Positions 2,284 through 57,436 of a DNA stretch of 64,000 bases are shown here, one piece after another; position 1 is the first letter of the stretch; each line of letters opens with the position of its first letter. The notes under the pieces were generated by a model, which worked only from the letters and a program-made list of their open reading frames with translations, did not search any database and was not told the origin of the DNA. The DNA comes from an uncultured Gammaproteobacteria bacterium (GTDB lineage: Bacteria; Patescibacteriota; Patescibacteriia; UBA1558; UBA10009). The stretch covers positions 3,425-67,424 of the forward strand of contig CAZPMS010000006.1 of assembly GCA_964588165.1 (NCBI GenBank). The letters are read 5' to 3'. Both the position numbers and the translations under genes were made by a program.

Positions 2284-2403
2284 ATTTATTTTTATTTAAT
2301 TTTATTTTGTTTTATATCTATTTTTGATAGTATTTTAAATATATCAGTAACAATAAAGCTGTCAATTAATATCTTGTTAATAAATTGTGAAAAAATAACA
2401 CCA

Positions 2404-2497
2404 ATAACACACGATGCTCACGAATGGCTCACAGATAGCGCGAGGATATATGTGCGCTATTAGTGTAATATCAGTGAGCAACAGTATTATTAGTGAT
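2404..2497 (+). repeat. noncoding element F, copy 1 (homologous to 47986-48077)
   Basis: Shares the exact 15-mer GTGCGCTATTAGTGT (2452-2466 vs 48031-48045), AGCAACAGTrTTATTAGT (2477-2494 vs 48057-48074) and ATAACAC..GATGCTC in the same order and orientation. Confidence 0.6.
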
Positions 2498-2504: not shown

Positions 2505-5075
2505 TTACTTATTAGCAGTGTCCTGCGAAAGCTTCATCCTTTCCAAAATCTCCTGTTCTACAATATTCCTGTCTCGGCCGTACTTTAAGCGCGAAGCTTC
2601 TTTAACTTTAAAAACGATTGATTTATCACCAGGCTTTGGCGGATAAGTTTTAATGTTAAAAGCCGGCACGTTCTGGTTATCTATTAATAATTTTAGATAG
2701 GCGTTAAACTTAGGAATATTTATTAAATCATATTCATTAAAAACAGGGTTAAACTGTTTAGCCACTAGTTCGGCATCATCCGGGCCTATCCTAAAGGAAG
2801 CCATTGTACCTACATTGCCAAAAACAGAATCCCTGATAGAAGTATCGTTGCCTTTTACCAGCTGGCCCACATATTGGTGCGCCACAGTTAAACTTAATTT
2901 ATATTTTCTGGCTTCTGATAAAATTATAGAAATGCTTTCGGTAATGAAATTTTGGAACTCATCTATATATAAATAATAATCGTGCCGCTTTTCTTCTGGC
3001 AATTCTACTCTGGAGAGGGCGGATATTAGAATCTTGCCAACAACTACCATGCCCAATAAATTTGCGGACATATCACCAATGGTCCCTTTGGCCAGTTTAA
3101 TTAGCAAAATCTTTTTCTTGTCCATTACTTCTCTAAAATTAAAAGAACTTTTTTGCTGGGCAATAATCGGCCTTAATAAATCGCTGGAGACAAATGGAGT
3201 TAATTTACTGGTGATATAAGGAACCATATTAGCCAATGATGCTTCGCCGCCGGCTTTTTCTGCCTCTTTCTCCCAAAAATCCCTTACCACCGGATTTACA
3301 CATTTAGAAAGCTTGTATCTCCTAAAATTAGGGTCGGCTAAAACCTTGGGTACTTCCAATAAAGTTGAGCCGGACACAGGATCTTCCATCATTAGCAGCA
3401 TGGCATTACGCATATACTGTTCAAACATTGGGCCACCGGTGGCTTTAAGGTCGTAGAGCTTATCAAAAATATTTATCATTTCGTTTATCACGAAAGTTTT
3501 TTGTTCCGGCGTGCTAAACTCCAGCATATTAAGCCCGATAGGCCTCTTGGTATCAGCTGGATCAAACAAAATTACATCGTCTACTCTGCCTTCGGGGATA
3601 TGCTCCATTACTGTTTCTATTAAATCTCCGTGGGGATCTATAACGCAAACGCCTTGGTTATTTTTAATGTCTTGGATTATCATGTTGGACATAAAAACAG
3701 ATTTACCGGTACCGGACTTGCCAATTATATACATATGCCTTAAGCGGTCCGAACTTTTAATTCTTATTGGCGCTTTTATTCCCCGATATAAATTCTCTCC
3801 CAAAATAAGGCCCTCTTTGGGTAAATTAAGAGGCGGCGTGGCCTTCCTGGCTTCTAACCAATTTATATTAGGTGTTTCTGAAGAAGGCAAAGGCAAGTGC
3901 CATAGGCTGGCCATTTCTTCAGCATTTAAAATTAAACTTTTTTTTGGAATAAAACTTCTATGGATAAAATTGGAGATCAATTTGGGAACTTTAATAAATT
4001 TTGCTTTTTTAAATCCATTGCCATATTCATAAATATTAAACTGAGAAAAAGCATTAATAATATTTTCTAAATAAGCCTCGGCCTTTTGCCTGTTTGGAGC
4101 AGAAACCACTACCCTTATGTTTGCTTCCATGCCTGCCTTGCTGGTTTTTTCTTCAATACCTTTTACCACCTCTGCTTCCATGGGAGAAAGCATTCTTCTT
4201 TCATCTGCTTCTTCTATATTTTTAGAAGCATCCTTTTTAGTTTTAAAAAAGCTTAAAGTGCCAACCACAGCGTTGGTTAGCTTATCAAAAATATTGCCTA
4301 AGCCTGCTTTCCTTAAAGCTACACTTAATTTTTTACCCTGTTGCATTTCTCTTGCTACAATTACTCCTTTGCGATGCCAGCTTTTATAAGCAGACCTAGC
4401 CACCAGCTGAATGGCTGCTCCTGATTCTTCACCTATTTTTGAAAAAGCATTGGTTAAAGCATTTAACGGATCGCTATCAGACTTTTTGTAAGTTTTAATT
4501 GGAAAAATAAAATCTCTGCCAAACTTTAAATAACTGCCAACCACCACGCCCTGGGCAGAAAAAATATTATAGTCTTCTAACTCCTCTATCTGTGCAAAAG
4601 GGTAAGAAGCATGGATTTGCTGTTCTAGGGTATCTTTTAAATAATCAGGAATGGCTACATAAAAATTAATCTTGCCATTTTGGGTTACGATTTCTACAGA
4701 AAAATGGTCTGATCTGCCAAAGATCCAGCTCTTTGTCCCTCTCTGGGCTTTAAGGCCGCCTAAAACAGAAAAAATGTTTTCCGCTACACCTATTTGTTCT
4801 TGGATTGTTTGGGGGGAATCATCGGCACCTTCTTTTTTTAAATTTTCTTTAGGCACGGTAATGAGCAAAATTTTCATTTTTAAAGCAGAAGGAACCTTAT
4901 TGCTTTTGGCTAAAAAACTTCTAACAATTAAAAAGGCGGTTATTAAAACCACCAACAAGATAAATATTAAAATAAAAGCTAAAAACCAAGTATTTTCCAA
5001 AAGGGCATTAGCCTGGGCAGTAAAAGGCGAATTTGACTCTATAACTATTTGCAAGGCAAACAAAGTTAAATACAT
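2505..5075 (-). CDS. VirD4/TraG-family (type IV coupling protein-like) P-loop NTPase with N-terminal membrane anchor
   Basis: 856 aa. N-terminal TM segments, Walker A IGKSGTGKS, Walker B-like YYLYIDEFQNF, then AHQYVGQL. Assignment by motif only. Confidence 0.65.
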   Translation of the reverse strand: MYLTLFALQIVIESNSPFTAQANALLENTWFLAFILIFILLVVLITAFLIVRSFLAKSNKVPSALKMKILLITVPKENLKKEGADDSPQTIQEQIGVAENIFSVLGGLKAQRGTKSWIFGRSDHFSVEIVTQNGKINFYVAIPDYLKDTLEQQIHASYPFAQIEELEDYNIFSAQGVVVGSYLKFGRDFIFPIKTYKKSDSDPLNALTNAFSKIGEESGAAIQLVARSAYKSWHRKGVIVAREMQQGKKLSVALRKAGLGNIFDKLTNAVVGTLSFFKTKKDASKNIEEADERRMLSPMEAEVVKGIEEKTSKAGMEANIRVVVSAPNRQKAEAYLENIINAFSQFNIYEYGNGFKKAKFIKVPKLISNFIHRSFIPKKSLILNAEEMASLWHLPLPSSETPNINWLEARKATPPLNLPKEGLILGENLYRGIKAPIRIKSSDRLRHMYIIGKSGTGKSVFMSNMIIQDIKNNQGVCVIDPHGDLIETVMEHIPEGRVDDVILFDPADTKRPIGLNMLEFSTPEQKTFVINEMINIFDKLYDLKATGGPMFEQYMRNAMLLMMEDPVSGSTLLEVPKVLADPNFRRYKLSKCVNPVVRDFWEKEAEKAGGEASLANMVPYITSKLTPFVSSDLLRPIIAQQKSSFNFREVMDKKKILLIKLAKGTIGDMSANLLGMVVVGKILISALSRVELPEEKRHDYYLYIDEFQNFITESISIILSEARKYKLSLTVAHQYVGQLVKGNDTSIRDSVFGNVGTMASFRIGPDDAELVAKQFNPVFNEYDLINIPKFNAYLKLLIDNQNVPAFNIKTYPPKPGDKSIVFKVKEASRLKYGRDRNIVEQEILERMKLSQDTANK

Positions 5076-5664: not shown

Positions 5665-5707
5665 TTAAATGTAAAATACTACACACTACCAACTACAAAC
5701 TAATACC

Positions 5708-7173: not shown

Positions 7174-7273
7174 ATTTTATTAGCTATATTTATATAGGTA
7201 ACTGAGGCATTATACTCTTTCTAAGAAAATCGTCAAGTTATCCTTGAAGTTAATTAAAATACATCCACGAGCT

Positions 7274-7312
7274 ATCTGCGGGTAATCTGGCGGGTAATCT
7301 GTGTTATCTGCG
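7274..7312 (+). repeat. phased heptamer array A (ATCTGCG, ATCTGGC, ATCTGTG, ATCTGCG)
   Basis: Heptamers start at 7274, 7285, 7297 and 7306 (spacing 11, 12, 9). The array ends 7 nt before TTGACA at 7319. Confidence 0.75.
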
Positions 7313-7396: not shown

Positions 7397-8260
7397 ATGA
7401 GAAGAAGGTGGATAAAAATTGACGGTACTGATACCGTTATCCGCGGTAAAACGGTAACTTTGAATTTAGAGTTACCGAGTGAATTCCAAAACGTTCACAG
7501 TCGTGATTTGGTGATAAACTGTGATGAAGGAAATGTACTGATTTGTGAAAGGGATGGTATTCACATCGCACCGACCATTGAAGTTTTTCCTGATACTCCT
7601 GATGTTCTTACTTTGGAAGTTAAGGGTAAGCTCATTCATCAACCAACAACAAGGACTGATTCTGCAAAGGAAACCGGCAGAGGAGATCCTTACAAAGTTG
7701 GCGAGCCACAGGTGGAACCGATTTTCGCCGATCCTGATCCGGAAGCTGAAGAAGAAGCAGAACTGGAACAGATTGGTGAAAGAATTACTATCACCCAAGA
7801 AATGCCGGTATACGAAACCACTGAAATCCATCACTTTGAGGCTGAAGAAAATTATTCTGCACGCTTTACTTTCAGGGTGATTGATTCTCGGCCGCTGATC
7901 AAACGTAACGAACTCACTGAGCTTCGGTTTGAGCTACCTGATGGTTTCGGCAAAATCAATGAACATCATCTACCAAAGATTTTGGGAAAGGGCGCCTACG
8001 TTACCGAGTGGCAACAGATAGGCCAAGCCTTAACTGTTTCGGTGAAGACCAAAAAGTCTTCACCCGAGGAAATTACTCTGCGGGTTCGCGGCATGTGTGA
8101 AGGCGAACATACTGAGGAATTCTTCAAAATTGATGTAGAGCCGGAAACTGAAAAGGTTAAGAGAAAAACTCTTATAGCCTTGGCAATACTTCTGCTGATA
8201 GCTGCCAGCTTTGTTTCGGGCATATACATTTCTACTCTTTTCCCTCTGTTATTTCAGTAG
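7397..8260 (+). CDS. hypothetical tail-anchored protein with two beta-rich repeats and an acidic linker (GC-rich islet ORF 2)
   Basis: 287 aa. Internal repeat (..LTLEVKGK.. / ..ITLRVRGM..), DPDPEAEEEAELEQ linker and a single C-terminal TM helix. High G+C. SD GAGAGG. Confidence 0.6.
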   Translation: MRRRWIKIDGTDTVIRGKTVTLNLELPSEFQNVHSRDLVINCDEGNVLICERDGIHIAPTIEVFPDTPDVLTLEVKGKLIHQPTTRTDSAKETGRGDPYKVGEPQVEPIFADPDPEAEEEAELEQIGERITITQEMPVYETTEIHHFEAEENYSARFTFRVIDSRPLIKRNELTELRFELPDGFGKINEHHLPKILGKGAYVTEWQQIGQALTVSVKTKKSSPEEITLRVRGMCEGEHTEEFFKIDVEPETEKVKRKTLIALAILLLIAASFVSGIYISTLFPLLFQ

Positions 8261-8311: not shown

Positions 8312-8359
8312 TTTAAAAAAACTTAAAAATAAAAAATAGTAGATAGATATCCGCGGACT

Positions 8360-8409
8360 ATCAGTGATTAATCAGTGATCGTTCCGCGAATATCAGTGAA
8401 TTATCTATG
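8360..8409 (+). repeat. phased heptamer array B (ATCAGTG x3, ATCTATG)
   Basis: Heptamers start at 8360, 8371, 8392 and 8403 (spacing 11, 21, 11). The array ends 7 nt before TTGACA at 8416. Confidence 0.7.
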
Positions 8410-8515: not shown

Positions 8516-10882
8516 ATGGCTACCACCGCAAAAGAAGTAGCTGGCGCAGCCACTGCTACCTCAGCTGCCGCAGCCAGAGAACAATTCCGTTTGGAACTGT
8601 GGCAAGTTTTCCGCGACATTCTTATCGGCAAAGACAAGTGGGTTGATGAAGTTGCCAGAACCCATTACGAAAACCAATTCAAGGAACAGTTTTCGGAGAA
8701 ATACGACCTACTTCTGAAAATGCTTCATCCCGACAACCTAAGTACTACCGACCAGCATTGCCTGGATATGGTGGCCTTGGAACATGCCAAGTTGGCCGAT
8801 AAATCTTTGCACGAAAAGGATACGGCTAAGCTCATACCAGGGATGTTTAAAATCTTCTGCGACAAGTTGGAAGAAGTTATTGACTTGGCTACCGAAGGTG
8901 ATGAGTTTGACGTCATCAAAGCGCACACACTGCTCCGGGACAAACGCTGGATCGGTCAGGGCTTCTGGGCTCAAAGGCTAAAGGAAAACATGGGTGAAAT
9001 TCTCAAGCTGGGTTGGATTTCTGAAGGCCTGAGAAGATTTATCCAATCTCCTATCGTTCATGACTTCATGGAAGGAGCTGAACAGCCTTCCATCGATTTC
9101 TTTGAATGGGCCCAGCAGCATTACAACCTCGCAGCCAAAATACGCAGCGGAGCACCCAGTAATCGCCGTTACAGCAACAACCCCTTCAAAAACTTTTTTG
9201 TAGGGCTGCAGTTGATGATTGGTGTTGCTTGGAACTATCTGATGGTAGGCTTGGGCAAGGTGAACAAGTTAAGGCAACAGAATTGGCACAGGATTGGCAA
9301 AAGGACCTTCTGGACAACCATAATTGTTCTGGGTGTGGTCATTGCTTTCCTGATACTGCTGGGATTAGGAATCCACAACAGCTACTTCAAAAGTACCAAC
9401 TACCTTTGGCTTATTGCGACTGCTGGAATTCTACTGTTCATCATCTTTGCTACACTCAAGATTATTGAGGCTGCACTGGGATTGGCCATCTTCACGGTAC
9501 GCTTGGCTTTTGCTGTTATAGCTAGGCCGTCCCTCTGGACCGTTGAACAAGGCGGTAAGTTTATCTGGCAAGTTGGTACTTGGCCAATTGAATTTGGCTT
9601 TGACGCTATAACCGACACCTTTAAGGGGCTATTAATGTTCTTAGGGGTTGATATTGAGGACATTGAACGGTTAAGCGACAGAAAATTCGAACTGACTGAA
9701 GCTCAGAAATCTGCTTGGGGAGATTTAAGTAAACGAACAGAAGACTTGATGAAAGGCGCCCGCCAAACCAGTATTTTCATCACTGTCGGCTTCAAGTATT
9801 TTGCGGCGCTGATAACTTCCACTTCTTTCCTGATCTTGGCCAAATGGCAGTTTTCTGGCGTAGACTCCAGTGCGGTTTTGAACAATCCGGTTTTTGCTCT
9901 GCTGATTCTTTTCCTGCTGGGCTCGCTTTTCACCCATTTTGGAATCCGTGAATATCAGGCAAGAATTGCTAAAGCTACCGGCTTAGATGACAAAAAGCGC
10001 TCCTGGCGAACAGTTAACCGGATTGCTTTTGCTTGCCTTGTTCTGCTGATTCTGGCTGAATGGCGATTTGAAACCGTCACTAACGTCTGGTACTACAATG
10101 CCAGGCAATCAGCAGCCATAACCGAACACGCAAACCAAGAAAGGAGGCTTAAAACTGCGATTTGGGAAAAAAATCGCAGTGCAACAATTCATCGTGGAGC
10201 AACTGTATTTTTGGCAGAAACCGATACAGAAAACGATGATGAGTCTTACATCGTCATAACCGACTCAACTTTCAGCCGGCCAAATCCGAATGTGGTTTAT
10301 GTGGTAAAACCTGCCCTTGAGCAAAACGGCCAGGTATTTACTATCTACAACCCCATTGACCAAAATGGCATCAGGCAAGCAAGCCTGCAATACGCTGTTT
10401 TGGCTCAATATCTGGATCAGGTTACTCCAAACGAGGCAGCCCGCTTGCTGGCTACCAAAACTGAGGCAAAGCCATCATTAATGCCTAGCTCCATTACTTA
10501 CAATCCGAGCAAAGGCATGGCAGTGCTTGGGTATGTTAACACCGATGATGTTCTTTATCTGGATCCTGTCCAACTGTCACTACTTAGCTGTCCTGAAGAA
10601 AGCGATATTGGACTGAAAGGTACCCATGGTACACCGCGTAGCCGCCATGAAGATTGGCCTGAAGAATTCGTTGATCAGCGCATGCGGCTTGGCGCCCTGT
10701 TGGTGAAATTACCAGCTTATGGTTGGCAACCTTTGTACCAAGCCGAGTCATTCAACATCCGTGGCAGCGGAACAGCCATGGTCTGCGTTAATACGCGGCG
10801 TGGGCTTTTTGGCCTTAACGAAGGAGGAATGGTAGATATTGCTATCAGGCTGGAAACCTATGCCGAAATGGCACAACGTTAA
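8516..10882 (+). CDS. hypothetical polytopic membrane protein, 788 aa (GC-rich islet ORF 3)
   Basis: Long uninterrupted ORF at roughly 45-60% G+C in sampled stretches. Soluble N-terminal ~270 aa, ~8 hydrophobic helices, soluble C-terminal ~250 aa. No family recognised. Confidence 0.65.
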   Translation: MATTAKEVAGAATATSAAAAREQFRLELWQVFRDILIGKDKWVDEVARTHYENQFKEQFSEKYDLLLKMLHPDNLSTTDQHCLDMVALEHAKLADKSLHEKDTAKLIPGMFKIFCDKLEEVIDLATEGDEFDVIKAHTLLRDKRWIGQGFWAQRLKENMGEILKLGWISEGLRRFIQSPIVHDFMEGAEQPSIDFFEWAQQHYNLAAKIRSGAPSNRRYSNNPFKNFFVGLQLMIGVAWNYLMVGLGKVNKLRQQNWHRIGKRTFWTTIIVLGVVIAFLILLGLGIHNSYFKSTNYLWLIATAGILLFIIFATLKIIEAALGLAIFTVRLAFAVIARPSLWTVEQGGKFIWQVGTWPIEFGFDAITDTFKGLLMFLGVDIEDIERLSDRKFELTEAQKSAWGDLSKRTEDLMKGARQTSIFITVGFKYFAALITSTSFLILAKWQFSGVDSSAVLNNPVFALLILFLLGSLFTHFGIREYQARIAKATGLDDKKRSWRTVNRIAFACLVLLILAEWRFETVTNVWYYNARQSAAITEHANQERRLKTAIWEKNRSATIHRGATVFLAETDTENDDESYIVITDSTFSRPNPNVVYVVKPALEQNGQVFTIYNPIDQNGIRQASLQYAVLAQYLDQVTPNEAARLLATKTEAKPSLMPSSITYNPSKGMAVLGYVNTDDVLYLDPVQLSLLSCPEESDIGLKGTHGTPRSRHEDWPEEFVDQRMRLGALLVKLPAYGWQPLYQAESFNIRGSGTAMVCVNTRRGLFGLNEGGMVDIAIRLETYAEMAQR

Positions 10883-10932: not shown

Positions 10933-10978
10933 AAATAAATTTATTCTACAAACTACCAACTACAACCTACTCACTATA

Positions 10979-12097
10979 TTATAATCCTTCTTTTTCTAAA
11001 TCTTCCAATAACTTCTTTTGCTTCCGGCTTAAATTATCAGGCACTTCTACCTTTACTTCTACAATTAAGTCTCCCCTGCCTCGGCCTCTTAATTTATGGG
11101 AGCCTTTATTTTTAATATTAAATTGGCGTCCAGTTGGCGTACCAGCCGGAATTTTTAAACTTACTTTGCCGTCTAAGGTTTCTATCTGGACTTTATCGCC
11201 CAAACTGGCTTGAGAAAATTTAATGGTTTTAGTTGTATGCAAATTATCGCCTTCTCTGTTAAATATTTTATGGGGCAAAACCCTAACTGTTATATATAAA
11301 TCTCCGGCTGTGGAACCTTTTAAGCCAGCTTCGCCTTTACTGGTTAGCCTTACAGTTTCCCCGGTAGAAATTCCGGCCGGAATACCAACTTTAACCCTTT
11401 CTTTGCCTCTTACTATACCATTACCGTGGCACTTAGCACATTCTTTTTCCGGTTTTTTACCTTCACCCATGCAGGCTTCGCAAACAGCTGCTGTCCTAAA
11501 AGTGCCAAAAAAAGTATTTTGAGTTTTATTTACCTGCCCGGAACCGCCACAGGTTTTGCATCCGCTGATTTTAGTGCCTGGCTCTGCCCCATTTCCCTTG
11601 CATTTTTCACACAAAATATTTTTAGAAATATCCAAAGTTTTTTCTATACCAAAAATTGCTTCCTCTAAAGTAATATTTATGCCAGCTTCAATGTCTCTGC
11701 CTTTATAATTCCTTCTGGTTGCTTGTTGGCGTTGGCCACCGCCAAAAAAATCGCCAAAGATATCGCCCAAATCATCAATATTAATATTATAACTACCTTG
11801 TCTAAAACCACCTCCACCTGCTCCACCTTGCCTAAAGGCATCAGACCAGTTAAAACCGGCATCATAAGCTGCCTGGCCGCCCATGCCCTCAAAACTGGTT
11901 CCAAACTGATCATACTGCTTTCTTTTTTTATCATTGCCAAGAACCTGATAAGCTTCGTTTACTTCTTTAAACTTATCAGCATTGCCGTTGCCTTTATCCG
12001 GATGATGCTCATGTGCCTTTTTCCTAAAGGCTTTTTTTACTTCATCGGCAGTGGCGCTTTTCTCTACGCCCAATGTTTTATAGTAATCTTTTCCCAT
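10979..12097 (-). CDS. dnaJ: molecular chaperone DnaJ
   Basis: J-domain with HPD (HEHHPDKG), a G/F-rich region and four CxxCxGxG zinc-finger repeats. Confidence 0.95.
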   Translation of the reverse strand: MGKDYYKTLGVEKSATADEVKKAFRKKAHEHHPDKGNGNADKFKEVNEAYQVLGNDKKRKQYDQFGTSFEGMGGQAAYDAGFNWSDAFRQGGAGGGGFRQGSYNINIDDLGDIFGDFFGGGQRQQATRRNYKGRDIEAGINITLEEAIFGIEKTLDISKNILCEKCKGNGAEPGTKISGCKTCGGSGQVNKTQNTFFGTFRTAAVCEACMGEGKKPEKECAKCHGNGIVRGKERVKVGIPAGISTGETVRLTSKGEAGLKGSTAGDLYITVRVLPHKIFNREGDNLHTTKTIKFSQASLGDKVQIETLDGKVSLKIPAGTPTGRQFNIKNKGSHKLRGRGRGDLIVEVKVEVPDNLSRKQKKLLEDLEKEGL

Positions 12098-12149: not shown

Positions 12150-14084
12150 TTATTTATCTTCCTTGTCATCCGAAGAGGATGATTCCTTTACTTCTTCAAC
12201 TTCTGCTTCCACAGGTTCGTCTTTCTTTTCTTCTGATTGGTTTTCTTGACCTTCCTGACCTTCAGTTGGCTGTGCCTGCTCTTGCTGTTGTTTATACATG
12301 CTTTCACCAATTTTCTGGACAGTCTGGTTCATATCTTCCAAAGCCTTGTTAATAACTTCAGCATCTTCGCCATCTTTAACCTTTTTTAAGGCATCCATTT
12401 TTTCGGTTACTTCGGTTTTTACATCTTCCGGAACCTTATCAGCTGATTCCTTAAGTAGTTTTTCTGTTTGGAAGATTACTGAATCGGCATTGTTTTTAGC
12501 ATCAATTAAATCCTTTTTCTTTTTATCATCATCAGCATGAAGTTCAGCATCCTTTTTCATCTTTTCTACTTCATCTTTAGAAAGTCCGGATGAAGCGGTA
12601 ATGGTAATTGACTGTTCTTTACCTGTGGCTTTATCTTGCGCCTTAACGCTTAAAATGCCGTTGGCATCTATATCAAAGGTAACTTCCACTTGAGGAACGC
12701 CCCTTGGTGCCGGCGGAATTCCGGAAAGGATAAATCTGCCTAAAGTTTTATTATCTTGGGCCATTTCTCTTTCGCCCTGTAAAACATTAATTTCTACTGA
12801 TGACTGGTTATCGGCCGCAGTAGAAAAAATTTGTGTTTTAGAAGTTGGGATGGTGGTATTCTTTTCTATTAACGGAGTCCTTACGCCACCTAAGGTTTCT
12901 AAGCCTAGAGTTAAAGGAGTTACATCCAATAACAGCACATCTTTAACATCGCCTTGCAAAACACCAGCCTGGACTGCAGCTCCAAGTGCTACTACCTCGT
13001 CTGGATTAACTGAAATATTTGGCTTTTTGCCAAAATATTCCTCTACCTTCTTTAATACTAAAGGCATTCTGGTCATGCCGCCAACTAAAATTATTTCGTC
13101 TATATCTTCTTTTTTAAAGCCGGAATCTTTTATTGCTAATTCAACCGCTTTAAACGATTGTTCAACTAACTCTGTAGTTAACTCATCAAGTTTAGCTCTG
13201 GTTAATTTCATTACCAAATGTTTTGGCCCTGCCTGATCGGTTGTTATAAACGGCTGATTAATTTCAGTTTCAGTGGAAGTAGAAAGTTCTACCTTGGCTT
13301 TTTCTGCGGCTTCTTTAACTCTTTGCATGGCCATGGCGTCACCGGTTAAATCTATACCCTGGTCTTTTTTGAATTCAGCAATAATCCAGTTAATAACCTT
13401 CTGGTCAAAGTCATCACCACCTAAATGAGTATCGCCATTGGTGGATTTAACTTCTACAGTATCTTCAGAAACATCTAAAATAGAAATATCAAAAGTTCCG
13501 CCGCCAAGGTCATAAACTGCCAGCTGCTGATTTTTCTTTTTATCAAAACCATAAGCCAAAGCAGCGGCTGTTGGTTCATTAACAATACGCTTTACTTTAA
13601 AACCGGCAATTTCTCCTGCATCCTTTGTGGCTTGACGCTGTGAATCGCTAAAATAAGCCGGTACGGTAATAATGGCTTCTTCAATTTTTTCACCCAGTTT
13701 CTCTTCAGCATCAGCTTTTAGCTTCTGCAAAATCATGGCCGAAATTTCTTGGGGCGTATATTCCTTATCTCCCATTTTAACTTTAACGCCAGCACCTGAT
13801 TTGACGATTTTATAAGGCATGGTTTTAATGTCGTCTTGGACTTCTTTATCTTCAAACTTTCGTCCAATTAAACGTTTTATGGAAAACAAAGTACTTTCCG
13901 GATTGGTGACGGCTTGCCTTTTAGCCAGTTGGCCGGCTAACCTTTCGTTGGTTTTGGAAACAGCCACCATAGATGGGGTGGTTCTGTTGCCTTCTTTGTT
14001 TTCTAATATTTTTGGCTGTCCGCCTTCCATAACAGCCATGGCTGAATTTGTTGTTCCTAGATCAATACCTAATATTTTTGGCAT
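12150..14084 (-). CDS. dnaK: molecular chaperone DnaK (Hsp70)
   Basis: 644 aa. [17 protein letters not shown] and the full Hsp70 architecture, with an acidic C-terminal tail. Confidence 0.97.
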
Positions 14085-14181
14085 ATTTTTATTATTAATT
14101 ATTAATAATTGATGATTAATGACTTATGATCATACTTATAATTAATTGATCATAAATCATAGTCCATAAATTAATTTCAAT

Positions 14182-14229
14182 ATCTGCGAATAATCTGCGC
14201 GTCATCTGTGACCAATCTGCGTATCTCTT
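14182..14229 (+). repeat. phased heptamer array C (ATCTGCG, ATCTGCG, ATCTGTG, ATCTGCG, degenerate ATCTCTT)
   Basis: Heptamers start at 14182, 14193, 14204 and 14215 (exact 11-bp spacing), then 14223. Lies between the divergent dnaK start (14084) and TTGACA at 14238. Confidence 0.8.
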
Positions 14230-14237
14230 ATTAACTA

Positions 14238-14266
14238 TTGACAAATCCTGTAACTGTTGTTAAATT
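14238..14266 (+). promoter_or_regulatory. sigma70-type promoter of islet ORF 4
   Basis: TTGACA (14238-14243), N17, TAAATT (14261-14266). The leader has the palindrome TTGAAatgTTCAA (14270-14282), CAACAAAAC, and SD AAGGAG. Confidence 0.7.
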
Positions 14267-14306
14267 AACTTGAAATGTTCAACAAAACTTAACAAGGAGA
14301 TATCTG

Positions 14307-14762
14307 ATGGACCAGCATGTATTTACTTTGAAAGGACGCTTCTGGTGCCTTGGAGGCCTTAGCGTTCATAGGGCTTTATTAAGGCCAGCTGACTACCTGC
14401 AAGATCCTAGGCCGACTCTGGGCGAAATGACCAAGGCATTCTTTAACCTGATGCATCTGAAACTTGGCAGGCTCGAACTTCCTATCCAAAAGGGTGGCCA
14501 TGGAGAAATCTGGATTTTTTATCCTAATGGATCTGGATTTAAAATTGAATTCAGGGAAGGGAAATTATGCCTCATCCGTTTTGGCAAATTCAGTGATGAT
14601 AGTCTGGATGTAAAATATCATGAAAATATTCTCGCCAAAATACCAATAGGCTCCCTGCCTCCAGAAGCAATAAAACAAGATTTTGTGCTTGACAATGGAA
14701 TGATACTGAATCACGATTCAATATCTCAACTAGGAACTGTCTTTACTGGCCTAGCCGCCTAA
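14307..14762 (+). CDS. hypothetical protein (GC-rich islet ORF 4)
   Basis: 151 aa. Higher G+C than the flanks, with SD AAGGAG 7 nt upstream. No family recognised. Confidence 0.55.
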   Translation: MDQHVFTLKGRFWCLGGLSVHRALLRPADYLQDPRPTLGEMTKAFFNLMHLKLGRLELPIQKGGHGEIWIFYPNGSGFKIEFREGKLCLIRFGKFSDDSLDVKYHENILAKIPIGSLPPEAIKQDFVLDNGMILNHDSISQLGTVFTGLAA

Positions 14763-14778
14763 AGTACATTTTCATCCC

Positions 14779-14810
14779 AATGAAGAGTTTAACCGCTCTT
14801 CATTTTTTTT
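14779..14810 (+). terminator. Rho-independent terminator of islet ORF 4
   Basis: AATGAAGAG / CTCTTCATT stem followed by TTTTTTT. Confidence 0.75.
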
Positions 14811-14812: not shown

Positions 14813-15148
14813 TTAAAATCCTTTCAATTTTTCTATAAAAGAACTATCTTTATTAATTAACTGATGAATCTCTAAAACATTATCAGAAATAATTTCTGGC
14901 TCCAATGTATAATCCATAACTTCTATTGCTGAAAGATCTGTTAAAATTGCATTGCCGATTAAACCGTGCGGCATGGTCATAACCCTTACAATAATACTGG
15001 AAGAACAGTGGCCACAGGTTAAATATGCCAAAAAGCCTTGTTCGTTTTCATCCAATATTTCAATCTTGCCTTCGGTATAATCATGGTTGCAAACCGGGCA
15101 TTTTTGAACCAATTTCAAACTAAATTGTCCTTTTTGACTGTTATTCAT
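14813..15148 (-). CDS. hypothetical zinc-ribbon protein
   Basis: 111 aa with CPVCNH...CGHC cysteine pairs. Native AT-rich style. Sits in the heat-shock cluster. Confidence 0.5.
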   Translation of the reverse strand: MNNSQKGQFSLKLVQKCPVCNHDYTEGKIEILDENEQGFLAYLTCGHCSSSIIVRVMTMPHGLIGNAILTDLSAIEVMDYTLEPEIISDNVLEIHQLINKDSSFIEKLKGF

Positions 15149-15152: not shown

Positions 15153-15584
15153 TTATTTCTTATTTTTCTTTTTAATTTCCACTTTAACGCTTTTTGGTTT
15201 TAATTTCTCTTGTTTTGGAATACTTATCTTTAAAATACCGTCTTCATATTCTGCCTTGGCCTTATCACCGCTAACTGAAACAGGCAAAGCCACGCTCCTA
15301 TGGAATGAACCGGTTCTGACTTCTTTTCTATAATAACTTTTATCATCAATTTCAGTCTTTTTTTCAATTTTACCATCCATGGTCAAAATATCATTTTCTA
15401 CCGTGATATTTACATCCTCTGGCTTAACTCCTACAAGTGGCGCTTCTACTATTAAATTTTTTTCATCTTGATAAATATCCAAAGATGGTGCAAAACCACT
15501 CTGTCTGTTACCAGGAAAATTGGTTATAAATTTGTCCATTTCATCAAATGGTTCAAAGAATGGACTCCATCTTATTAATGTCAT
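15153..15584 (-). CDS. small heat-shock protein, Hsp20/alpha-crystallin family
   Basis: 143 aa. Alpha-crystallin domain pattern (DIYQDEKNLIVEAPLVGVKPEDVNITVEND..LPV..A.YEDGILKISIPK). Confidence 0.9.
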   Translation of the reverse strand: MTLIRWSPFFEPFDEMDKFITNFPGNRQSGFAPSLDIYQDEKNLIVEAPLVGVKPEDVNITVENDILTMDGKIEKKTEIDDKSYYRKEVRTGSFHRSVALPVSVSGDKAKAEYEDGILKISIPKQEKLKPKSVKVEIKKKNKK

Positions 15585-15602: not shown

Positions 15603-16106
15603 TTATTTTTTTGAAACGATAACTTGGGCTGGCTGTAAAACACTATCCTTTATTTTGTAGCCAGACTTTATCTCTTTAATTATGATATTATCAGTTTGAT
15701 CTGACTCTTCCTGGCCAACTGCCTCATGAAATTCGGGATTAAATTCTTCTCCCACTGTTTTTATCTCTTCAATAGCAAACCTTTTTAAAAATTGATCAAA
15801 TTCAGCTCTAATATGTCCAAGACCCTCTAACCATTCTTGGTCTGACTTTTCTTTAGGTTGATGGTTTAAGGCTAATTTAAAATGGTCATAAATTGTTAAA
15901 ACTTCCAATATAATTCCGGCGGTAGAATATTCAACCAGATCTTTTACTTTTTTATCTGATTCTTTTTTTAGATTTTCATAATCTGCCTGAGCTCTTTTCC
16001 AGCCATTTAAATATTCTTCACATTTAGACTGAAGCTCCTCAACTTTATCCTGATCCTTGTTTATGGATCCTTGTTTATGAATTTTATTTTTTTTTGTCTT
16101 TTCCAT
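15603..16106 (-). CDS. grpE: nucleotide exchange factor GrpE
   Basis: 167 aa. Coiled-coil N-terminus, RAQADYENLKK and a C-terminal beta domain typical of GrpE. Confidence 0.9.
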   Translation of the reverse strand: MEKTKKNKIHKQGSINKDQDKVEELQSKCEEYLNGWKRAQADYENLKKESDKKVKDLVEYSTAGIILEVLTIYDHFKLALNHQPKEKSDQEWLEGLGHIRAEFDQFLKRFAIEEIKTVGEEFNPEFHEAVGQEESDQTDNIIIKEIKSGYKIKDSVLQPAQVIVSKK

Positions 16107-16114: not shown

Positions 16115-16804
16115 TTACTTATTACTAGTCACTAAATTAATTAAACCTAAATTTTTCTCATAATCCATTCTTATGGGCCCCAGGATTCCTAAAAGGCCAG
16201 TTTGCTTATTTAATTGCCATCTGCCTATAACACTGCTGCAATCTTGCCCAAAAGGATTTTCGGAACCTATCAATACTTGGGTTTGGCTAATGTCTTCAAA
16301 AATATCGGAAACTACTTGTTCTAAATGGTCAATTATTAAACTAATATTATAAACCATCTCTGTTTGTTTAAATTCCGGCTGCGAAAATAAGTTAGAAATG
16401 CCGGTATAATATATATTACTGTCTGAGAAAGCCACAATCACGGCATTATTGGAAAACTCAGCCATTTTTTTAGCAATTGACTTTATTGACTGTTCAACTG
16501 ACTCTTTTTTAAAAATATTAATTATTTTTTGAATTTCTTTTTGCTCGGTTGAATTTATTTTGCCATCCTTAATATGATTTTCTAAAAAATACTTGTAGCC
16601 TTTTTCGGTAGGAATTCTGCCGGCCGAAGTATGTGGCTGGATAATATAACCCTCTTTTTCTAAATCAGCCATTTCGTTCCTAATGGTAGCTGAAGAAACT
16701 CCCAGTTTGGATTTATCTTCCAATAATTTTGAACCTACCGGGCTGGCTTGTTTAATATACTGTTTAATTATTTGGCTAAGTAAAGCCTTTTTTCTCTCTT
16801 CCAT
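16115..16804 (-). CDS. hrcA: heat-inducible transcription repressor HrcA (short form)
   Basis: N-terminal wHTH PVGSKLL...SSATIRNEMADLEKEGYIIQPHTSAGRIPT. A CIRCE operator lies immediately upstream. Confidence 0.8.
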   Translation of the reverse strand: MEERKKALLSQIIKQYIKQASPVGSKLLEDKSKLGVSSATIRNEMADLEKEGYIIQPHTSAGRIPTEKGYKYFLENHIKDGKINSTEQKEIQKIINIFKKESVEQSIKSIAKKMAEFSNNAVIVAFSDSNIYYTGISNLFSQPEFKQTEMVYNISLIIDHLEQVVSDIFEDISQTQVLIGSENPFGQDCSSVIGRWQLNKQTGLLGILGPIRMDYEKNLGLINLVTSNK

Positions 16805-16819: not shown

Positions 16820-16846
16820 CTAGCACTCAAGCCATATGAGTGCTAA
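16820..16846 (-). promoter_or_regulatory. CIRCE operator (HrcA binding site)
   Basis: Minus strand TTAGCACTC-N9-GAGTGCTAG. Matches the consensus TTAGCACTC-N9-GAGTGCTAA at 17/18 positions. Confidence 0.9.
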
Positions 16847-16849: not shown

Positions 16850-16877
16850 AGTATAACATTTTAAAAAAGAGTGTCAA
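16850..16877 (-). promoter_or_regulatory. sigma70-type promoter of hrcA-grpE
   Basis: Minus strand TTGACA (16877-16872), N16, TATACT (16855-16850), directly abutting CIRCE. The -35 is embedded in the palindrome AGAGTGTTGACACTCT. Confidence 0.7.
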
Positions 16878-18151: not shown

Positions 18152-18261
18152 TTTTCAAAAATTCTAAGCGCTAAATCTTAAATACTAAACATTTAATTAA
18201 TTAGAATTTTGAACATTTGAATTTGTTTAGAATTTAGAATTTAGAAATTATGATTTAACAA

Positions 18262-29581: not shown

Positions 29582-30061
29582 TTATACTTTTAATTTTTCT
29601 TTCACTTTATTTACAACATCTTCTAATTTCCAGTCGCTTTTAATTAAATAATCATAGGCGCCACTTTCTAACATTTCAGCAATCTTTTCCCTATCATTTA
29701 AAACTGTTAATACTATTACCTGGACTTTACTACCCCATGTATCTTTTCTTAATTCCTTTAACATCTTTACTCCGTTCATCTTCGGCATAATAATATCTAA
29801 CAAGATAATATCAGGATGCTCTTTAAATGCAATTTCTAACCCTTCCTGGCCGTTTTTTGCCTGAAAAACCCCGAAGCCGTCAATCTTTGGCATAACCAGA
29901 TCTAAAAAAAGCAAATCAAACTTTTCACTTTTTAACAAATTTAATATTTCTTCACCATTATAAGCAACTTTTACATCAAAACCGGCACTTTTTAGTTTTA
30001 ATTCCAAAGCTTTAGCCATGGGCTTTTCATCTTCTCCTATTAAAATTTTCTTATTTGGCAT
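29582..30061 (-). CDS. response-regulator receiver (REC) protein with an internal ~33-aa duplication
   Basis: ILIGEDE..., then two successive phosphoacceptor blocks: AYNGEEILNLLKSEKFDLLFLDLVMPKIDG and AKNGQEGLEIAFKEHPDIILLDIIMPKMNG. No output domain. Confidence 0.8.
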   Translation of the reverse strand: MPNKKILIGEDEKPMAKALELKLKSAGFDVKVAYNGEEILNLLKSEKFDLLFLDLVMPKIDGFGVFQAKNGQEGLEIAFKEHPDIILLDIIMPKMNGVKMLKELRKDTWGSKVQVIVLTVLNDREKIAEMLESGAYDYLIKSDWKLEDVVNKVKEKLKV

Positions 30062-36139: not shown

Positions 36140-36170
36140 AATATGATGATTGAAAACTGTTGATTGATGA

Positions 36171-36186
36171 TTGATGAATAATGATT
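36171..36186 (-). repeat. 16-nt upstream motif AATCATTATTCATCAA (copy 1, before fba)
   Basis: Exact 16-mer (plus strand ttgatgaataatgatt), also at 42099-42114 and 47831-47846. Each lies 10-32 nt upstream of a minus-strand start codon. Confidence 0.6.
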
Positions 36187-36223
36187 AAAAACTAATCAAT
36201 CATTAATTTTTAATTATTAGTTA

Positions 36224-36988
36224 TTAGCTCTGTTTAACTAATTCAATAAATGTATCCGGCTTTAATGAAGCTCCACCAACTAAAATACCGTCCACCGTTG
36301 GCTGAGAAGTAAAACTGTTAACATTTTCCGGGTTAACACTGCCGCCATAAGTGATGCTGGTTTTCTTATCGGCAATCTCTAAAGATAATTTATCCAATAA
36401 AACCTGCCGTATTACCCTGTTAGTATGTTCTGCTTCTTCTGCCTGAACAGCCTGGCCAGAACCAATTACCCAAACAGGTTCGTAAGCAATTACCAAATAA
36501 TCATCCGATAAAATTTTAACATCTGCCAATGCCTTATTAATCTGCTCCATAATCACAAAATCTTTTCTGCCTTCTTTCCTTTGTTCAAAAGTTTCACCCA
36601 CGCAGATAATGGGAATTAAATTATTTTTAAGGGCAGACAAAACCTTTTTATTAACCATTTCATCTGTTTCTTTTAAATACTGCCTCCTTTCGGAATGGCC
36701 AACAATAACATATTTACAACCCAGCTCCTTTAAAACTTTAGGTGAAACTTCGCCGGTAAAAGCGCCTTCATCGTCCCAAAAGCAATTTTGGGCGCCTAAA
36801 GATACTTTATTTGAATTTTTTACAACCTCGCCAATGGAAGCGATTGAATCAAAAGTTGGACACAGTATAACTTCCACTTTTCCTTCTGACCATTCATTTT
36901 CTTTTTCTACAATTTCTTCTGCCAGCTTAAGGCTTTCGGAAGGTTTAAGATTCATTTTCCAATTAGCAATTATAATTGTTTTTTTCAT
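36224..36988 (-). CDS. tpiA: triosephosphate isomerase
   Basis: 254 aa. IIANWKMN, VGHSERR, AYEPVWVIGSG. Confidence 0.95.
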   Translation of the reverse strand: MKKTIIIANWKMNLKPSESLKLAEEIVEKENEWSEGKVEVILCPTFDSIASIGEVVKNSNKVSLGAQNCFWDDEGAFTGEVSPKVLKELGCKYVIVGHSERRQYLKETDEMVNKKVLSALKNNLIPIICVGETFEQRKEGRKDFVIMEQINKALADVKILSDDYLVIAYEPVWVIGSGQAVQAEEAEHTNRVIRQVLLDKLSLEIADKKTSITYGGSVNPENVNSFTSQPTVDGILVGGASLKPDTFIELVKQS

Positions 36989-41064: not shown

Positions 41065-41123
41065 ATCTGCGGAATATCTGCGTGTCATCTGCGCCTGCCC
41101 GCCTATTGCGGGGTCAATCTGCG
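41065..41123 (+). repeat. phased heptamer array D (ATCTGCG x4) interrupted by a GC hairpin
   Basis: ATCTGCG at 41065, 41076, 41087 and 41117 (spacing 11, 11, 30). The CCCGC-CTATT-GCGGG hairpin lies between them. The array is 17-75 nt upstream of the minus-strand start at 41048. Confidence 0.75.
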
Positions 41124-47821: not shown

Positions 47822-47830
47822 ATTTAATGA

Positions 47831-47846
47831 TTGATGAATAATGATT
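47831..47846 (-). repeat. 16-nt upstream motif AATCATTATTCATCAA (copy 3, before rluB)
   Basis: Exact copy, 10 nt upstream of the ATG at 47821. Confidence 0.6.
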
Positions 47847-47854
47847 AATGAATT

Positions 47855-47936
47855 ATCTGTGAGTAATCCCTACCTTCCGGCAGGCAGGCGTGGGTCATCT
47901 GGTGGGTAATCAGTAAATATCTGTGACTTATCCGTG
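47855..47936 (+). repeat. phased heptamer array E (ATCTGTG, ATCTGGT, ATCAGTA, ATCTGTG, ATCCGTG) with a GC hairpin insert
   Basis: Heptamers start at 47855, 47897, 47909, 47919 and 47930. The hairpin CCTACCTTCCGGCAGGCAGG lies at ~47868-47887. The array abuts TTGACC at 47937. Confidence 0.65.
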
Positions 47937-47965
47937 TTGACCCTATTTTAACAGATTTAACTATA
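47937..47965 (+). promoter_or_regulatory. candidate promoter facing element F copy 2
   Basis: TTGACC (47937-47942), N17-19, ACTATA/TATATA. No plus-strand ORF follows. Confidence 0.4.
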
Positions 47966-47985
47966 TAAAACTAATTTTTTCACAT

Positions 47986-48077
47986 ATAACACGAATGCTC
48001 GCTATTCTTTTACAGATTACACACTAATCCGTGCGCTATTAGTGTTTTATCCGTAAGCAACAGTGTTATTAGTTATT
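47986..48077 (+). repeat. noncoding element F, copy 2 (possible sRNA or cis element)
   Basis: Homologous to 2404-2497 (see that feature). Lies between candidate promoter E and the islet-7 terminator. Confidence 0.55.
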
Positions 48078-48150: not shown

Positions 48151-48645
48151 TTACTTTTTCAGCTTCTTGCCGAAGCCTTCATTGTCAAGAAATGTGAGCG
48201 CTTCAATCCAGAGAATGGCCTTAGCCATTTCTTGTGCGACACACTTCACGTTTCGACCACCAGGACCGTAAGTGAATTTACTGACACCCAGCGGGTATTG
48301 AGTACTGAAAGAGGCAATAATACCCTCAGTCATTTTCTGTTTTCCGCTGGTCTCGATAATTTGAGTTACGATTGGCCACTTAAAGTCATCACGGGTATGG
48401 TTGGATACCACTGCCCCGACTACCATCCCAAGGTTCCAGTTGACATCGCGTAGATGATCAAGCCCTTTGCCCTCAGCAAGCCACTCGTTGACCACCGTTT
48501 TTACTATTGGCCAGCTCCATTGCCAGCAACCAACTCCCACCAGAAGCAAATCACGATTGTCATGTACTCGAATGCCAGCCTTAGAAAACTTTATAAAGTT
48601 TTCTTTTAAAGCCCTTTCCTCTCGATTCTTCTCTTTGAAAGTCAT
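48151..48645 (-). CDS. hypothetical protein (GC-rich islet ORF 7)
   Basis: 164 aa, preceded by AGGAGGAG 3 nt upstream... of the ATG. Higher G+C. No family recognised. Confidence 0.55.
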   Translation of the reverse strand: MTFKEKNREERALKENFIKFSKAGIRVHDNRDLLLVGVGCWQWSWPIVKTVVNEWLAEGKGLDHLRDVNWNLGMVVGAVVSNHTRDDFKWPIVTQIIETSGKQKMTEGIIASFSTQYPLGVSKFTYGPGGRNVKCVAQEMAKAILWIEALTFLDNEGFGKKLKK

Positions 48646-48703
48646 CTTCTCCTCCTAACAATAAGGGGATTATGCTGCGCCACCATTAGCACAGTCTGTT
48701 TAT

Positions 48704-48732
48704 AATGTAACATATTTTTATATTTATGTCAA
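48704..48732 (-). promoter_or_regulatory. sigma70-type promoter of islet ORF 7
   Basis: Minus strand TTGACA (48732-48727), N17, TACATT (48709-48704). Confidence 0.65.
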
Positions 48733-48747
48733 GTTTTACTGGATATC

Positions 48748-48776
48748 AAAAAACTCAATAAAATTGAGCCTTTTTT
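48748..48776. terminator. bidirectional hairpin terminator downstream of tRNA-Asn
   Basis: CTCAAT-AAA-ATTGAG flanked by A6 and T6 runs. Confidence 0.6.
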
Positions 48777-48777
48777 A

Positions 48778-48954
48778 TGGCTGCCGGGGCTGGATTTTCA
48801 CCCCGCCGTATTGGCTGTGGAGACAGGACTCGAACCTGTAACATTCGCATTAACAGTGCGACGTTCTACCATTGAACTACTCCACAACTAATGTAGATAG
48901 ACGAAAATACTGCCCGCCAAAGGCGGGTCCGCCCTTGGCGGAAACTACCCGGCA
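48778..48954 (-). pseudogene. outer (disrupted) tRNA-Asn-like gene enclosing the intact tRNA-Asn
   Basis: The 5' piece is TGCCGGG-TA-GTT[twin hairpin 48913-48942]CAGTA (48954->48908). The 3' piece is ...CCCGGCA-G-CCA (48809->48778). The acceptor halves TGCCGGG/CCCGGCA are perfectly complementary. The anticodon arm is missing. Confidence 0.7.
48812..48886 (-). tRNA. tRNA-Asn (anticodon GUU)
   Basis: 75 nt TGTGGAG-TA-GTTC-AATGGTA-GAAC-G-TCGCA-CTGTTAA-TGCGA-ATGTT-ACAGG-TTCGAGT-CCTGT-CTCCACA-G-CCA. A U1-A72 pair also occurs in E. coli tRNA-Asn. Confidence 0.9.
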
Positions 48955-49003: not shown

Positions 49004-49156
49004 ATTATTACTTTTTACTAAATAACAACTCACCAAGTTCTAAACCGGTTATTATTGTTTAAATTGTTGTCTTTTCTTAACATATTAATAATTTATCAGA
49101 TTTAATCTATTTGTCAACTCTTCCTAGTTACTAATTACCAGTTACTAATTACCAAC

Positions 49157-50077: not shown

Positions 50078-50079
50078 AT

Positions 50080-51591: not shown

Positions 51592-51593
51592 AT

Positions 51594-51622
51594 TTGACTG
51601 ATTTACTTATTTTTGATAATTT
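51594..51622 (+). promoter_or_regulatory. candidate promoter of the 30-codon mini-ORF
   Basis: TTGACT (51594-51599, overlapping the purH start region), N17, TAATTT. Confidence 0.45.
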
Positions 51623-51654
51623 TTAATTATACTGTTCTTTACTAGGAGTTTAAG

Positions 51655-51747
51655 ATGAGCGATGAAAAACCAGATACCGAACAAGATGAGCCCACCCCAG
51701 CAGAATTAAGTGGAATGGGACTAGCACATGATTTGTGCGGCAAATAA
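51655..51747 (+). CDS. 30-aa acidic peptide ORF (GC-rich mini-islet 8), coding status uncertain
   Basis: MSDEKPDTEQDEPTPAELSGMGLAHDLCGK. AGGAG lies 6 nt upstream and a hairpin terminator follows. The G+C is far above the surrounding spacer. Not in the ORF track. Confidence 0.3.
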   Translation: MSDEKPDTEQDEPTPAELSGMGLAHDLCGK

Positions 51748-51759
51748 CATCTACCCAGG

Positions 51760-51788
51760 ACCGCCTCTTTACTAAGTTGCGGTTTTTA
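51760..51788 (+). terminator. terminator after the mini-ORF
   Basis: ACCGC...GCGGT stem followed by TTTTTAT. Overlaps the purN stop codon. Confidence 0.5.
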
Positions 51789-52370: not shown

Positions 52371-52381
52371 AATTTTATCGA

Positions 52382-52557: not shown

Positions 52558-52562
52558 CAAAT

Positions 52563-55420: not shown

Positions 55421-55483
55421 AAATTTTATAATTAATGAACCATGATCAATAATCAATTATTATCATGGTTTATGGTTTATAGA

Positions 55484-57393: not shown

Positions 57394-57436
57394 AAATTTA
57401 TGAATAAAAAATGTTATGGAAAACTTTACTTCTATC

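Follow-up and report, generated by a model that had tools for sequence, protein, structure and literature searches.

Has a gene that settled inside an essential stress operon handed the chaperone genes behind it to a new regulator? The question is raised by positions 14182-14810 of the 64-kb stretch of DNA analysed here, which we call the window. The segment lies between znr, a zinc-ribbon gene of the hrcA heat-shock operon, and dnaK, and it holds a plus-strand open reading frame (ORF) of 151 codons, ORF151, next to an array of phased heptamers. An earlier, sequence-only reading had proposed that a GC-rich islet splits the operon and that dnaK may have come under new control; a transfer of dnaK to a new regulator brought by the islet is not supported as stated. 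On balance we prefer, with some reserve, to see two separable things in 14182-14810, an autonomous accessory cassette and one copy of a dispersed array, with dnaK-dnaJ expressed by read-through. We would describe the locus as an orphan-gene cassette that sits at an insertion hotspot, beside one copy of a dispersed, phased and probably protein-binding element.

The heat-shock operon and its antisense gene

Read from the hrcA promoter towards dnaJ, the locus contains the following features.

16850-16877, minus strand: hrcA promoter, TTGACA-16-TATACT, TG-extended (consensus scan, 11/12 matches)
16820-16846: operator CIRCE (controlling inverted repeat of chaperone expression), TTAGCACTC-N9-GAGTGCTAg, one mismatch, between the -10 box and the hrcA ATG
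16115-16804, minus strand: hrcA (Pfam HrcA, PF01628, 1.1e-19)
15603-16106, minus strand: grpE (Pfam GrpE)
15153-15584, minus strand: hsp20 (Pfam HSP20)
14813-15148, minus strand: znr, four-cysteine zinc-ribbon gene, 111 aa (znr family alignment)
14779-14804, plus strand: intrinsic terminator of ORF151, 10-bp stem and U8
14307-14762, plus strand: ORF151, 151 codons, fast-evolving, no Pfam domain
14294-14299, plus strand: Shine-Dalgarno sequence AAGGAG, 7 nt before the ATG (read from the sequence)
14238-14266, plus strand: ORF151 promoter, TTGACA-N17-TAAATT with upstream TG (-35 at 14238-14243, -10 at 14261-14266; consensus scan)
14182-14221, plus strand: array 1, four ATCTGYG heptamers with 4-nt non-conserved spacers, 11-bp phase
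14085-14181: AT-rich spacer beside dnaK with ATTAATG-like repeats of 7-bp period, no Shine-Dalgarno sequence
12150-14084, minus strand: dnaK (Pfam HSP70)
10979-12097, minus strand: dnaJ (Pfam DnaJ)

All sequence features that the sequence-only reading had described here were recovered at the positions given. The order of hrcA, grpE, hsp20 and a zinc-ribbon gene was confirmed by Pfam and by the znr family alignment, in which C17, C20, C45 and C48 are invariant (CxxC...CxxC). CIRCE and a good promoter stand upstream of hrcA, and all parts of the plus-strand unit before dnaK (array, promoter, AAGGAG, 151-aa ORF, terminator) are present. The CIRCE consensus TTAGCACTC-N9-GAGTGCTAA, scanned through the 64 kb at up to four mismatches, has its sole match at 16820-16846; at this threshold no second CIRCE was found near dnaK, in agreement with that reading.

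Eight relatives were read gene by gene (L130-L133 and L149-L152). Seven of them have hrcA-grpE-(hsp20)-znr-dnaK-...-dnaJ on one strand, and their znr-dnaK gaps are 11-84 nt (L130, L131, L132, L149-L152), with 11 nt in the closest fully read relative, L130 (82%). In the exception, L133, znr and dnaK are colinear, but an unrelated antisense ORF of 88 aa occupies a 369-nt spacer. A single CIRCE, upstream of hrcA, was present in all eight. Among 69 further metagenomic loci znr and dnaK were colinear wherever dnaK was found, and distant relatives have no more than 2-20 nt between the two genes. Since the relatives have a colinear operon with short znr-dnaK gaps, the packed order hrcA-grpE-(hsp20)-znr-dnaK-dnaJ is ancestral, and the 728 nt between the znr stop (14813) and the dnaK start (14084) of the window derived, with the plus-strand unit as an insertion. 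That the islet splits the heat-shock operon is thus correct in the sense of a physical interruption of an ancestrally contiguous operon.

The 151 codons might be no gene at all, and the region an expanded non-coding spacer. In line with this, ORF151 had no Pfam match even at E up to 5, a word-indexed search of 5.8 billion clusters returned only ORF151 itself, and its AlphaFold model (pLDDT 38.8) was too poor for a fold search. The only matches in a phmmer comparison with 1.8 billion representatives were biased repeat proteins of the SpaA, crystallin and CBM types, and tblastn against phages and plasmids gave no match. The contigs bearing ORF151 are all 99.96-100% identical, and population variation among them is uninformative. 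Against a mere spacer stand the frame itself, with promoter, Shine-Dalgarno sequence and terminator (fold -11.3 kcal/mol, z = -6) correctly placed, and a syntenic protein-level homolog of the same length. The latter, in L154 (znr 73% identical), is a 150-aa ORF in the same position and antisense orientation (L154:560-1012), with 45% identity to ORF151 over 58 aligned positions of the N-terminal region and a Smith-Waterman score of 93, compared with 27.6 ± 4.6 for shuffles (z = 15). Upstream it has TTGACA-N17-TAAATT as promoter and GGAGG for ribosome binding, and its terminator directly adjoins the znr stop. A non-coding origin is therefore hardly credible, and because promoter and terminator are placed right and the L154 homolog is syntenic and of the same size, ORF151 is a real, fast-evolving gene. 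L153 (79%) holds an apparent remnant, the -35 sequence TTGACAAATTGC with a terminator hairpin shortly after it and no ORF.

The same junction holds other insertions. At least three unrelated families of small antisense ORFs occur in it, each with its own terminator abutting the znr stop. The second family was found in L133/L171 and L182 (88 and 35 aa; L133:7362-7628 and L182:5208-5315; z = 7.6 between them), the third is a 104-aa ORF (L174:1285-1599), and the antisense ORFs of L133 and L174 have no detectable relation to ORF151. Other repeats and GC hairpins fill the spacer in L155-L162, L169, L172, L186 and L218, with lineage-specific heptamer or octamer tandem arrays of other sequences in L155, L161, L162, L169 and L172. 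The spacers at L155:742-925 and L156:798-1011 have a duplicated 5' fragment of dnaK (atgagtaaaattttaggaatcgatctagg...) and an interrupting CCGCC...GGCGG hairpin element, which suggests that a small GC-rich palindromic element was inserted with duplication. By these comparisons the znr-dnaK spacer is a recurrent landing or retention site for antisense orphan cassettes.

The znr homologs indicate a host related to Candidatus Komeilibacteria, Patescibacteria. At 36% GC the window is AT-rich, and almost all of its genes are on the minus strand, which is the gene-rich and, by GC skew, the G-rich one. The term GC-rich islet holds only in part. GC has a local peak of 0.49, and ORF151 has 0.425 against a gene mean of 0.361 (sd 0.041), with 0.38 against 0.31 (sd 0.06) at third codon positions, but the enrichment is modest, dnaK and dnaJ being already at 0.39-0.40. 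Seven window genes have at least 42% GC, none of them with a Pfam domain. A Shine-Dalgarno core precedes 6 of these 7 GC-richer orphan genes, compared with 6 of the 54 others (61 window genes), and the energies of the anti-Shine-Dalgarno duplex differ accordingly (Mann-Whitney p = 8e-5). In front of native genes, dnaK included, stand AT-rich leaders like ATTAATAA instead; the genome, though small, has two classes of translation-initiation signal. As komeilibacterial relatives span 30-50% GC, transfer from higher-GC Komeilibacteria is a possible source of the GC-richer genes. GC-richer genes are not always recent. The 788-aa ORF at 8516-10882 encodes a multi-pass membrane protein without Pfam domains and had passed for an orphan when searched by the word index, but tblastn recovered diverged homologs downstream of dnaJ in L153, L131, L171 and L170 (30-35% identity; same position, convergent with dnaJ, at L153:10279-12069 and L131:10817-11272). 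It is thus a resident, clade-specific, fast-evolving gene rather than a recent import. Elsewhere in the window, a GC-rich orphan gene of 164 aa (48151-48886) with strong promoter and Shine-Dalgarno sequence directly adjoins tRNA-Asn, and degenerate heptamer arrays (47897-48075) lie on its other flank. tRNA genes are classic integration sites.

The dispersed heptamer array

The units of array 1 are ATCTGCG at 14182, ATCTGCG at 14193, ATCTGTG at 14204 and ATCTGCG at 14215, exactly 11 bp apart. Further copies in the window are these.

7263-7312, plus strand: array 2, five units, followed by TTGACA at 7319 and a 287-aa orphan ORF at 7397-8260
8349-8398, plus strand: array 3 (ATCCGCG, three times ATCAGTG, TTCCGCG), followed by TTGACA at 8416 and the 788-aa ORF
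41065-41123, plus strand: array 4, three units, a GC hairpin (41094-41116) and one unit
2398-2497: degenerate head-to-head array pair, intergenic (phased scan with a position-weight matrix)
47897-48075, plus strand: two degenerate arrays, flanked by an orphan ORF and a pseudouridine synthase gene (position-weight-matrix scan)

Array 4 stops 16 nt short of the start codon of a ybaK-like gene on the minus strand, and the degenerate array at 48027 resembles that at 2448, spacers included. In the 10-kb extension of the contig, a four-unit array (L222:939-901) ends 2 nt before the guaB ATG. The element is composed of three to five heptamers ATC(T/A/C)G(C/T)G with 4-nt spacers in 11-bp phase, with occasional skips of 22 bp, and is found at a minimum of eight loci in about 84 kb of the host genome, all copies being intergenic. 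The phased two-unit pattern has 7 matches in the window where 0.14 are expected, a number reached by none of 100 shuffles, and ATCTGCG is the top exact heptamer recurring there at distance 11. Over 18 units, information is 1-2 bits at the heptamer positions and about zero in the spacers, which argues against simple slippage. All seven single arrays have the same chromosomal orientation (two-sided p about 0.016). No Rfam match was obtained in the region, the window or 12 array-bearing loci, the arrays gave no significant RNA fold, and the exact array strings had no match in the literature.

Cassette and array occur one without the other. L154 has the homologous cassette and no array, with only 48 nt from the dnaK ATG to the -35 box. 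L150/L178 have no cassette, yet four phased units lie in their 82-nt znr-dnaK spacer, which on the dnaK strand read CACAGAT, CACGGAT, CACTGAT and CACGGAT, in the same orientation to dnaK as in the window. In L174 an array of five units precedes the promoter of the unrelated antisense ORF found there, and L158/L160 have two plus two inverted units around GC hairpins. Because L154 has the cassette without array and L150/L178 the array without cassette, the array is separable from the islet, a dispersed intergenic element that is not specific to dnaK. Two parts of the sequence-only reading fall here. The L154 cassette speaks against an array brought by the islet as dnaK control, and arrays of the same type before two other plus-strand orphan genes, the ybaK-like gene and guaB speak against an array specific to dnaK. 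Islet-less relatives with the array upstream of dnaK, which that reading had itself named beforehand as counter-evidence, do exist (L150/L178).

The pattern ATCTGYG-N4-ATCTGYG-N4-ATCTGYG was also searched in GTDB representative genomes (L010-L129) and matched at least 120 stretches (e.g., L027, L043, L044, L046, L085). Among the matches listed, many metagenome-assembled genomes of Verrucomicrobiota and Planctomycetota have a near-invariant ATCTGTGTTCAATCTGTGTTTCATCTGTGGCTAA, usually 10-20 nt before housekeeping start codons (ABC ATPases, fabG-like, gatB, release factor) and often as inverted pairs, looser versions occur in metagenome-assembled genomes of Acidobacteriota, and some matches are perfect 11-bp tandem repeats that may be chance picks. 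No Rfam family and no literature match was found for the ATCTGTGTTCAATCTGTGTTTCATCTGTGGCTAA-type arrays. A different kind of repeat, tandem with 7-bp period, occupies many intergenic spacers of the window, often directly upstream of start codons.

5678-5702, 10946-10970, 14094-14130, 18226-18250: repeats of 7-bp period
36144-36226, 47825-47853, 49128-49155, 56849-56945: repeats of 7-bp period, continued

Control of dnaK and the nature of the array

The sequence-only reading had dnaK-dnaJ separated from the CIRCE promoter. Physically this is so; transcriptionally it does not follow, as the cassette hairpin on the minus strand is succeeded by UGGGAUGAAAAUG with no U-tract. Between znr and dnaK (14813-14084) the minus strand gave no terminator. 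With the U-tract on the plus strand only, it is therefore plausible that transcription from the CIRCE promoter reads through into dnaK-dnaJ. The two genes would then be transcribed largely in this way, antisense through ORF151, and convergent transcription from the strong ORF151 promoter would modulate chaperone expression. A weak internal dnaK promoter in the AT-rich spacer 14085-14181 is possible and might add to this modulation; a consensus scan gave no convincing sigma-70 promoter between the array and the dnaK ATG. Similar ATTAATAATTAA leaders precede dnaK in relatives.

In the earlier model, the insertion uncoupled dnaK-dnaJ from CIRCE and HrcA, and the array serves as a new, HrcA-independent operator of dnaK. 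The missing CIRCE upstream of dnaK agrees with it, and so does the distribution in 680 kb of relatives, where phased ATCNGYG pairs occur at four distinct loci only, three of them in the znr-dnaK spacer (L150/L178, L158/L160, L174). In L150 the last unit even passes into a perfect TATAAT, 41 nt upstream of the dnaK ATG, and the earlier units take the -35 position as in a promoter of the pho-box type; in the window, and also at 41065, it passes into GATATT or GATAAT. On the other side, the array type stands at seven or more other host loci unconnected with chaperones, and dnaK lacks an upstream array in the closest relatives (L130, L153, L154). The cassette terminator is no terminator on the operon strand, no convincing dnaK promoter follows the array, and a spacer that collects so many unrelated repeats suggests permissiveness rather than function. 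We regard the model as rather doubtful. An array-dependent effect on dnaK nevertheless stays live as a minority hypothesis, because three of the four phased loci in relatives are znr-dnaK spacers and L150 has its TATAAT.

As to the array itself, we favour a multi-site operator of a global regulator. The predicted binder would oligomerise on a single DNA face, with winged-helix proteins (OmpR/PhoB/SARP/ArcA type) and ribbon-helix-helix or excisionase-like proteins as the foremost candidates. This proposal is made because a 7-bp unit with a free 4-bp spacer, in three to five copies at an 11-bp period, is a winged-helix signature. SARP operators are heptamers with 4-bp spacers, thus 11-bp units on one DNA face, and act from upstream of the -35 by class I activation (PMC5930380); ArcA sites consist of three to five direct repeats at 11 or 22 bp (PMC3798270); and excisionase-type proteins are reported to recognise direct repeats one helical turn apart (bioRxiv 10.1101/784983). 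In repeat structure the arrays agree with direct-repeat operators, which have at least two repeats of a 6-8-bp unit at 10-11-bp spacing with free spacers. The start of the last unit precedes TTGACA by 13 bp at 7263, by 24 bp at 8349 and by 23 bp at 14182; these three plus-strand -35 boxes lie one or two turns from it, roughly in phase by a criterion chosen post hoc, and other copies abut an ATG or a stop.

Several points weigh against the picture of read-through and operator. The best minus-strand promoter match, TTAACA-18-AATAGT (9/12, 14263-14234), which lies beyond the array, could also drive dnaK. No candidate binding protein turned up in the 64-kb window, which encodes no Trans_reg_C protein and only a receiver-only response regulator (29582-30061). 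The contexts of the array are mixed, i.e., upstream of a -35, abutting an ATG, after stops, near hairpins or head-to-head, and fit a selfish repeat as well as a regulator. All seven single arrays point the same way, which a simple operator model would not predict, and the promoters next to arrays, with consensus -35 and extended -10, would need no activator.

The mixed contexts lead to the idea of selfish or neutral dispersed repeats, MITE-like (miniature inverted-repeat transposable element), REP-like (repetitive extragenic palindrome) or made by slippage, without regulation and in a spacer that is merely insertion-tolerant. Eight or more intergenic copies per about 84 kb would fit such repeats, as would the head-to-head palindromic pairs (window 2398-2497, L090, L165), the spacers shared by 2448 and 48027, the recurring AACC, AGCC and CGCT, the GC-rich hairpins embedded at 41094-41116 and in L158, and the many other short-period intergenic repeats of the host genome and its relatives. 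We still find it unlikely. In most copies the heptamer is conserved and the spacers are not; the heptamer is common to Patescibacteria of 36-50% GC (window, L079, L090, L150, L158, L165, L174); the three consensus -35 boxes have their arrays regularly one to two turns upstream; and no transposase or terminal inverted repeats were seen. Inverted pairs were present at some array loci only, and no target-site duplications were noticed on reading the array flanks, where no systematic check was made. A strand-polar chromosomal signal, or an RNA-level element of CRCAGAU repeats, would on the other hand account for the seven single arrays that read ATC-to-G on the plus strand whatever the direction of the neighbouring gene, in a window whose minus strand is gene-rich and G-rich. 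Several arrays lie between co-oriented minus-strand genes and would be transcribed, and among the matches listed the version of Verrucomicrobiota and Planctomycetota stands 10-20 nt before start codons. With only seven sites (two-sided p about 0.016), head-to-head pairs in existence, three plus-strand cassettes whose array is upstream of the promoter and so outside the mRNA, no Rfam match and no significant fold, we think this very improbable.

Other identities were tried for the array and set aside. A second CIRCE gave no match at up to four mismatches, and the CtsR heptad GGTCAAA, HAIR, the pho box and parS were rejected by sequence. The DnaA box TGTGGATAA was rejected as well, as it matches one unit only, at 7/9. 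A structured RNA had no Rfam match, a phage origin is unlikely with only 15 matches in 2.9 million viral contigs, and a 101-aa protein beside the 41065 array had no Pfam or PDB support as binder.

The locus is a clean and comparatively dated case of an orphan gene with foreign-looking expression signals settling in an essential stress operon, and it exposes a dense, conserved, helically phased heptamer array. In bacteria of the candidate phyla radiation (CPR), recognisable regulators are very scarce and orphan genes numerous. A cassette of this kind is nothing unusual for such genomes, and it is the array family that deserves to be followed. Should the array prove to be an operator, it would mark out one of the first regulons of CPR and connect orphan genes, nucleotide metabolism (through guaB) and the main chaperone; should it be no more than a selfish repeat, what we have is an ordinary insertion hotspot. 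A wider proposal, which we put forward as tentative and on present grounds improbable, is that the arrays are bound by a global DNA-binding protein as yet unrecognised, or form a strand-polar chromosome element, conserved across Patescibacteria and repeatedly recruited to the komeilibacterial znr-dnaK junction, with ATCTGTGTTCAATCTGTGTTTCATCTGTGGCTAA maybe as counterpart in Verrucomicrobiota, Planctomycetota and Acidobacteriota. Reduced genomes would then have a second, HrcA-independent control layer over dnaK and fast-evolving orphan genes.

Three observations concern the surroundings. Not far from the heat-shock locus, at window 2505-5075, there is a gene for a DUF87/TrwB-like type IV secretion ATPase, with synteny to relatives. 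About 10 kb outside the left end of the window there are an IS1595-family transposase and a P63C-domain gene (L223:13720-15472). The window at 49157-63970, together with L222, holds a near-complete cluster for de novo purine biosynthesis (purF, purD, purN, purH, purB, purE, purC, purQ, purL-like, purM, guaB, guaA, purA), which is unusual, since Patescibacteria are generally thought to be without nucleotide synthesis.

Comparison with known systems

In gene order the operon is the Bacillus-type hrcA-grpE-dnaK-dnaJ operon under CIRCE/HrcA control, with HrcA as first gene and a single CIRCE between the -10 box and hrcA. Unlike in that type, grpE is separated from dnaK in this clade by hsp20 and a clade-specific zinc-ribbon gene, to which this genome adds an antisense autonomous gene between znr and dnaK. 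The cassette resembles phage morons and other autonomous accessory cassettes, as it consists of one ORF that has a strong promoter and a terminator to itself inside an unrelated unit, and differs from its neighbours in composition and translation signals. It differs from morons in that it is not in a prophage, its flanks being a conserved chromosomal heat-shock operon, and that it is syntenically inherited in at least two lineages; a location in a mobile element had no support from phage or plasmid matches.

Mobile DNA offers some parallels to the array. The 11-bp iteron centromere ParR-parC of plasmid R1, with direct iterons flanking a promoter, can be likened to it, and like REP sequences and their mosaics (BIME, bacterial interspersed mosaic elements) and MITEs it is short, multi-copy, strictly intergenic and sometimes palindromic. 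In most copies, unlike in REP/BIME, MITEs and ParR-parC, only the heptamer is conserved, and unlike ParR-parC and MITEs the arrays have no transposase or partition genes nearby, their copies being chromosomal and scattered. They share with the binding-site arrays of recombination directionality factors (Apl, Cox, Xis) direct repeats one turn apart, which are reported both from promoters and from DNA insertion sites (bioRxiv 10.1101/784983), whereas here integrase, att site and prophage are all absent and the copies are far more abundant. In form the array is like SARP, ArcA and pho-box operators: a conserved 7-bp unit, a free 4-bp spacer, three to five tandem repeats, sometimes a 22-bp skip, and, in some copies, a place upstream of or overlapping the -35. 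From the operators of OmpR/PhoB-fold proteins the arrays differ in the heptamer itself, in the higher density of copies (about one per 10 kb), and in their single chromosomal orientation, with some copies head-to-head or abutting start or stop codons.

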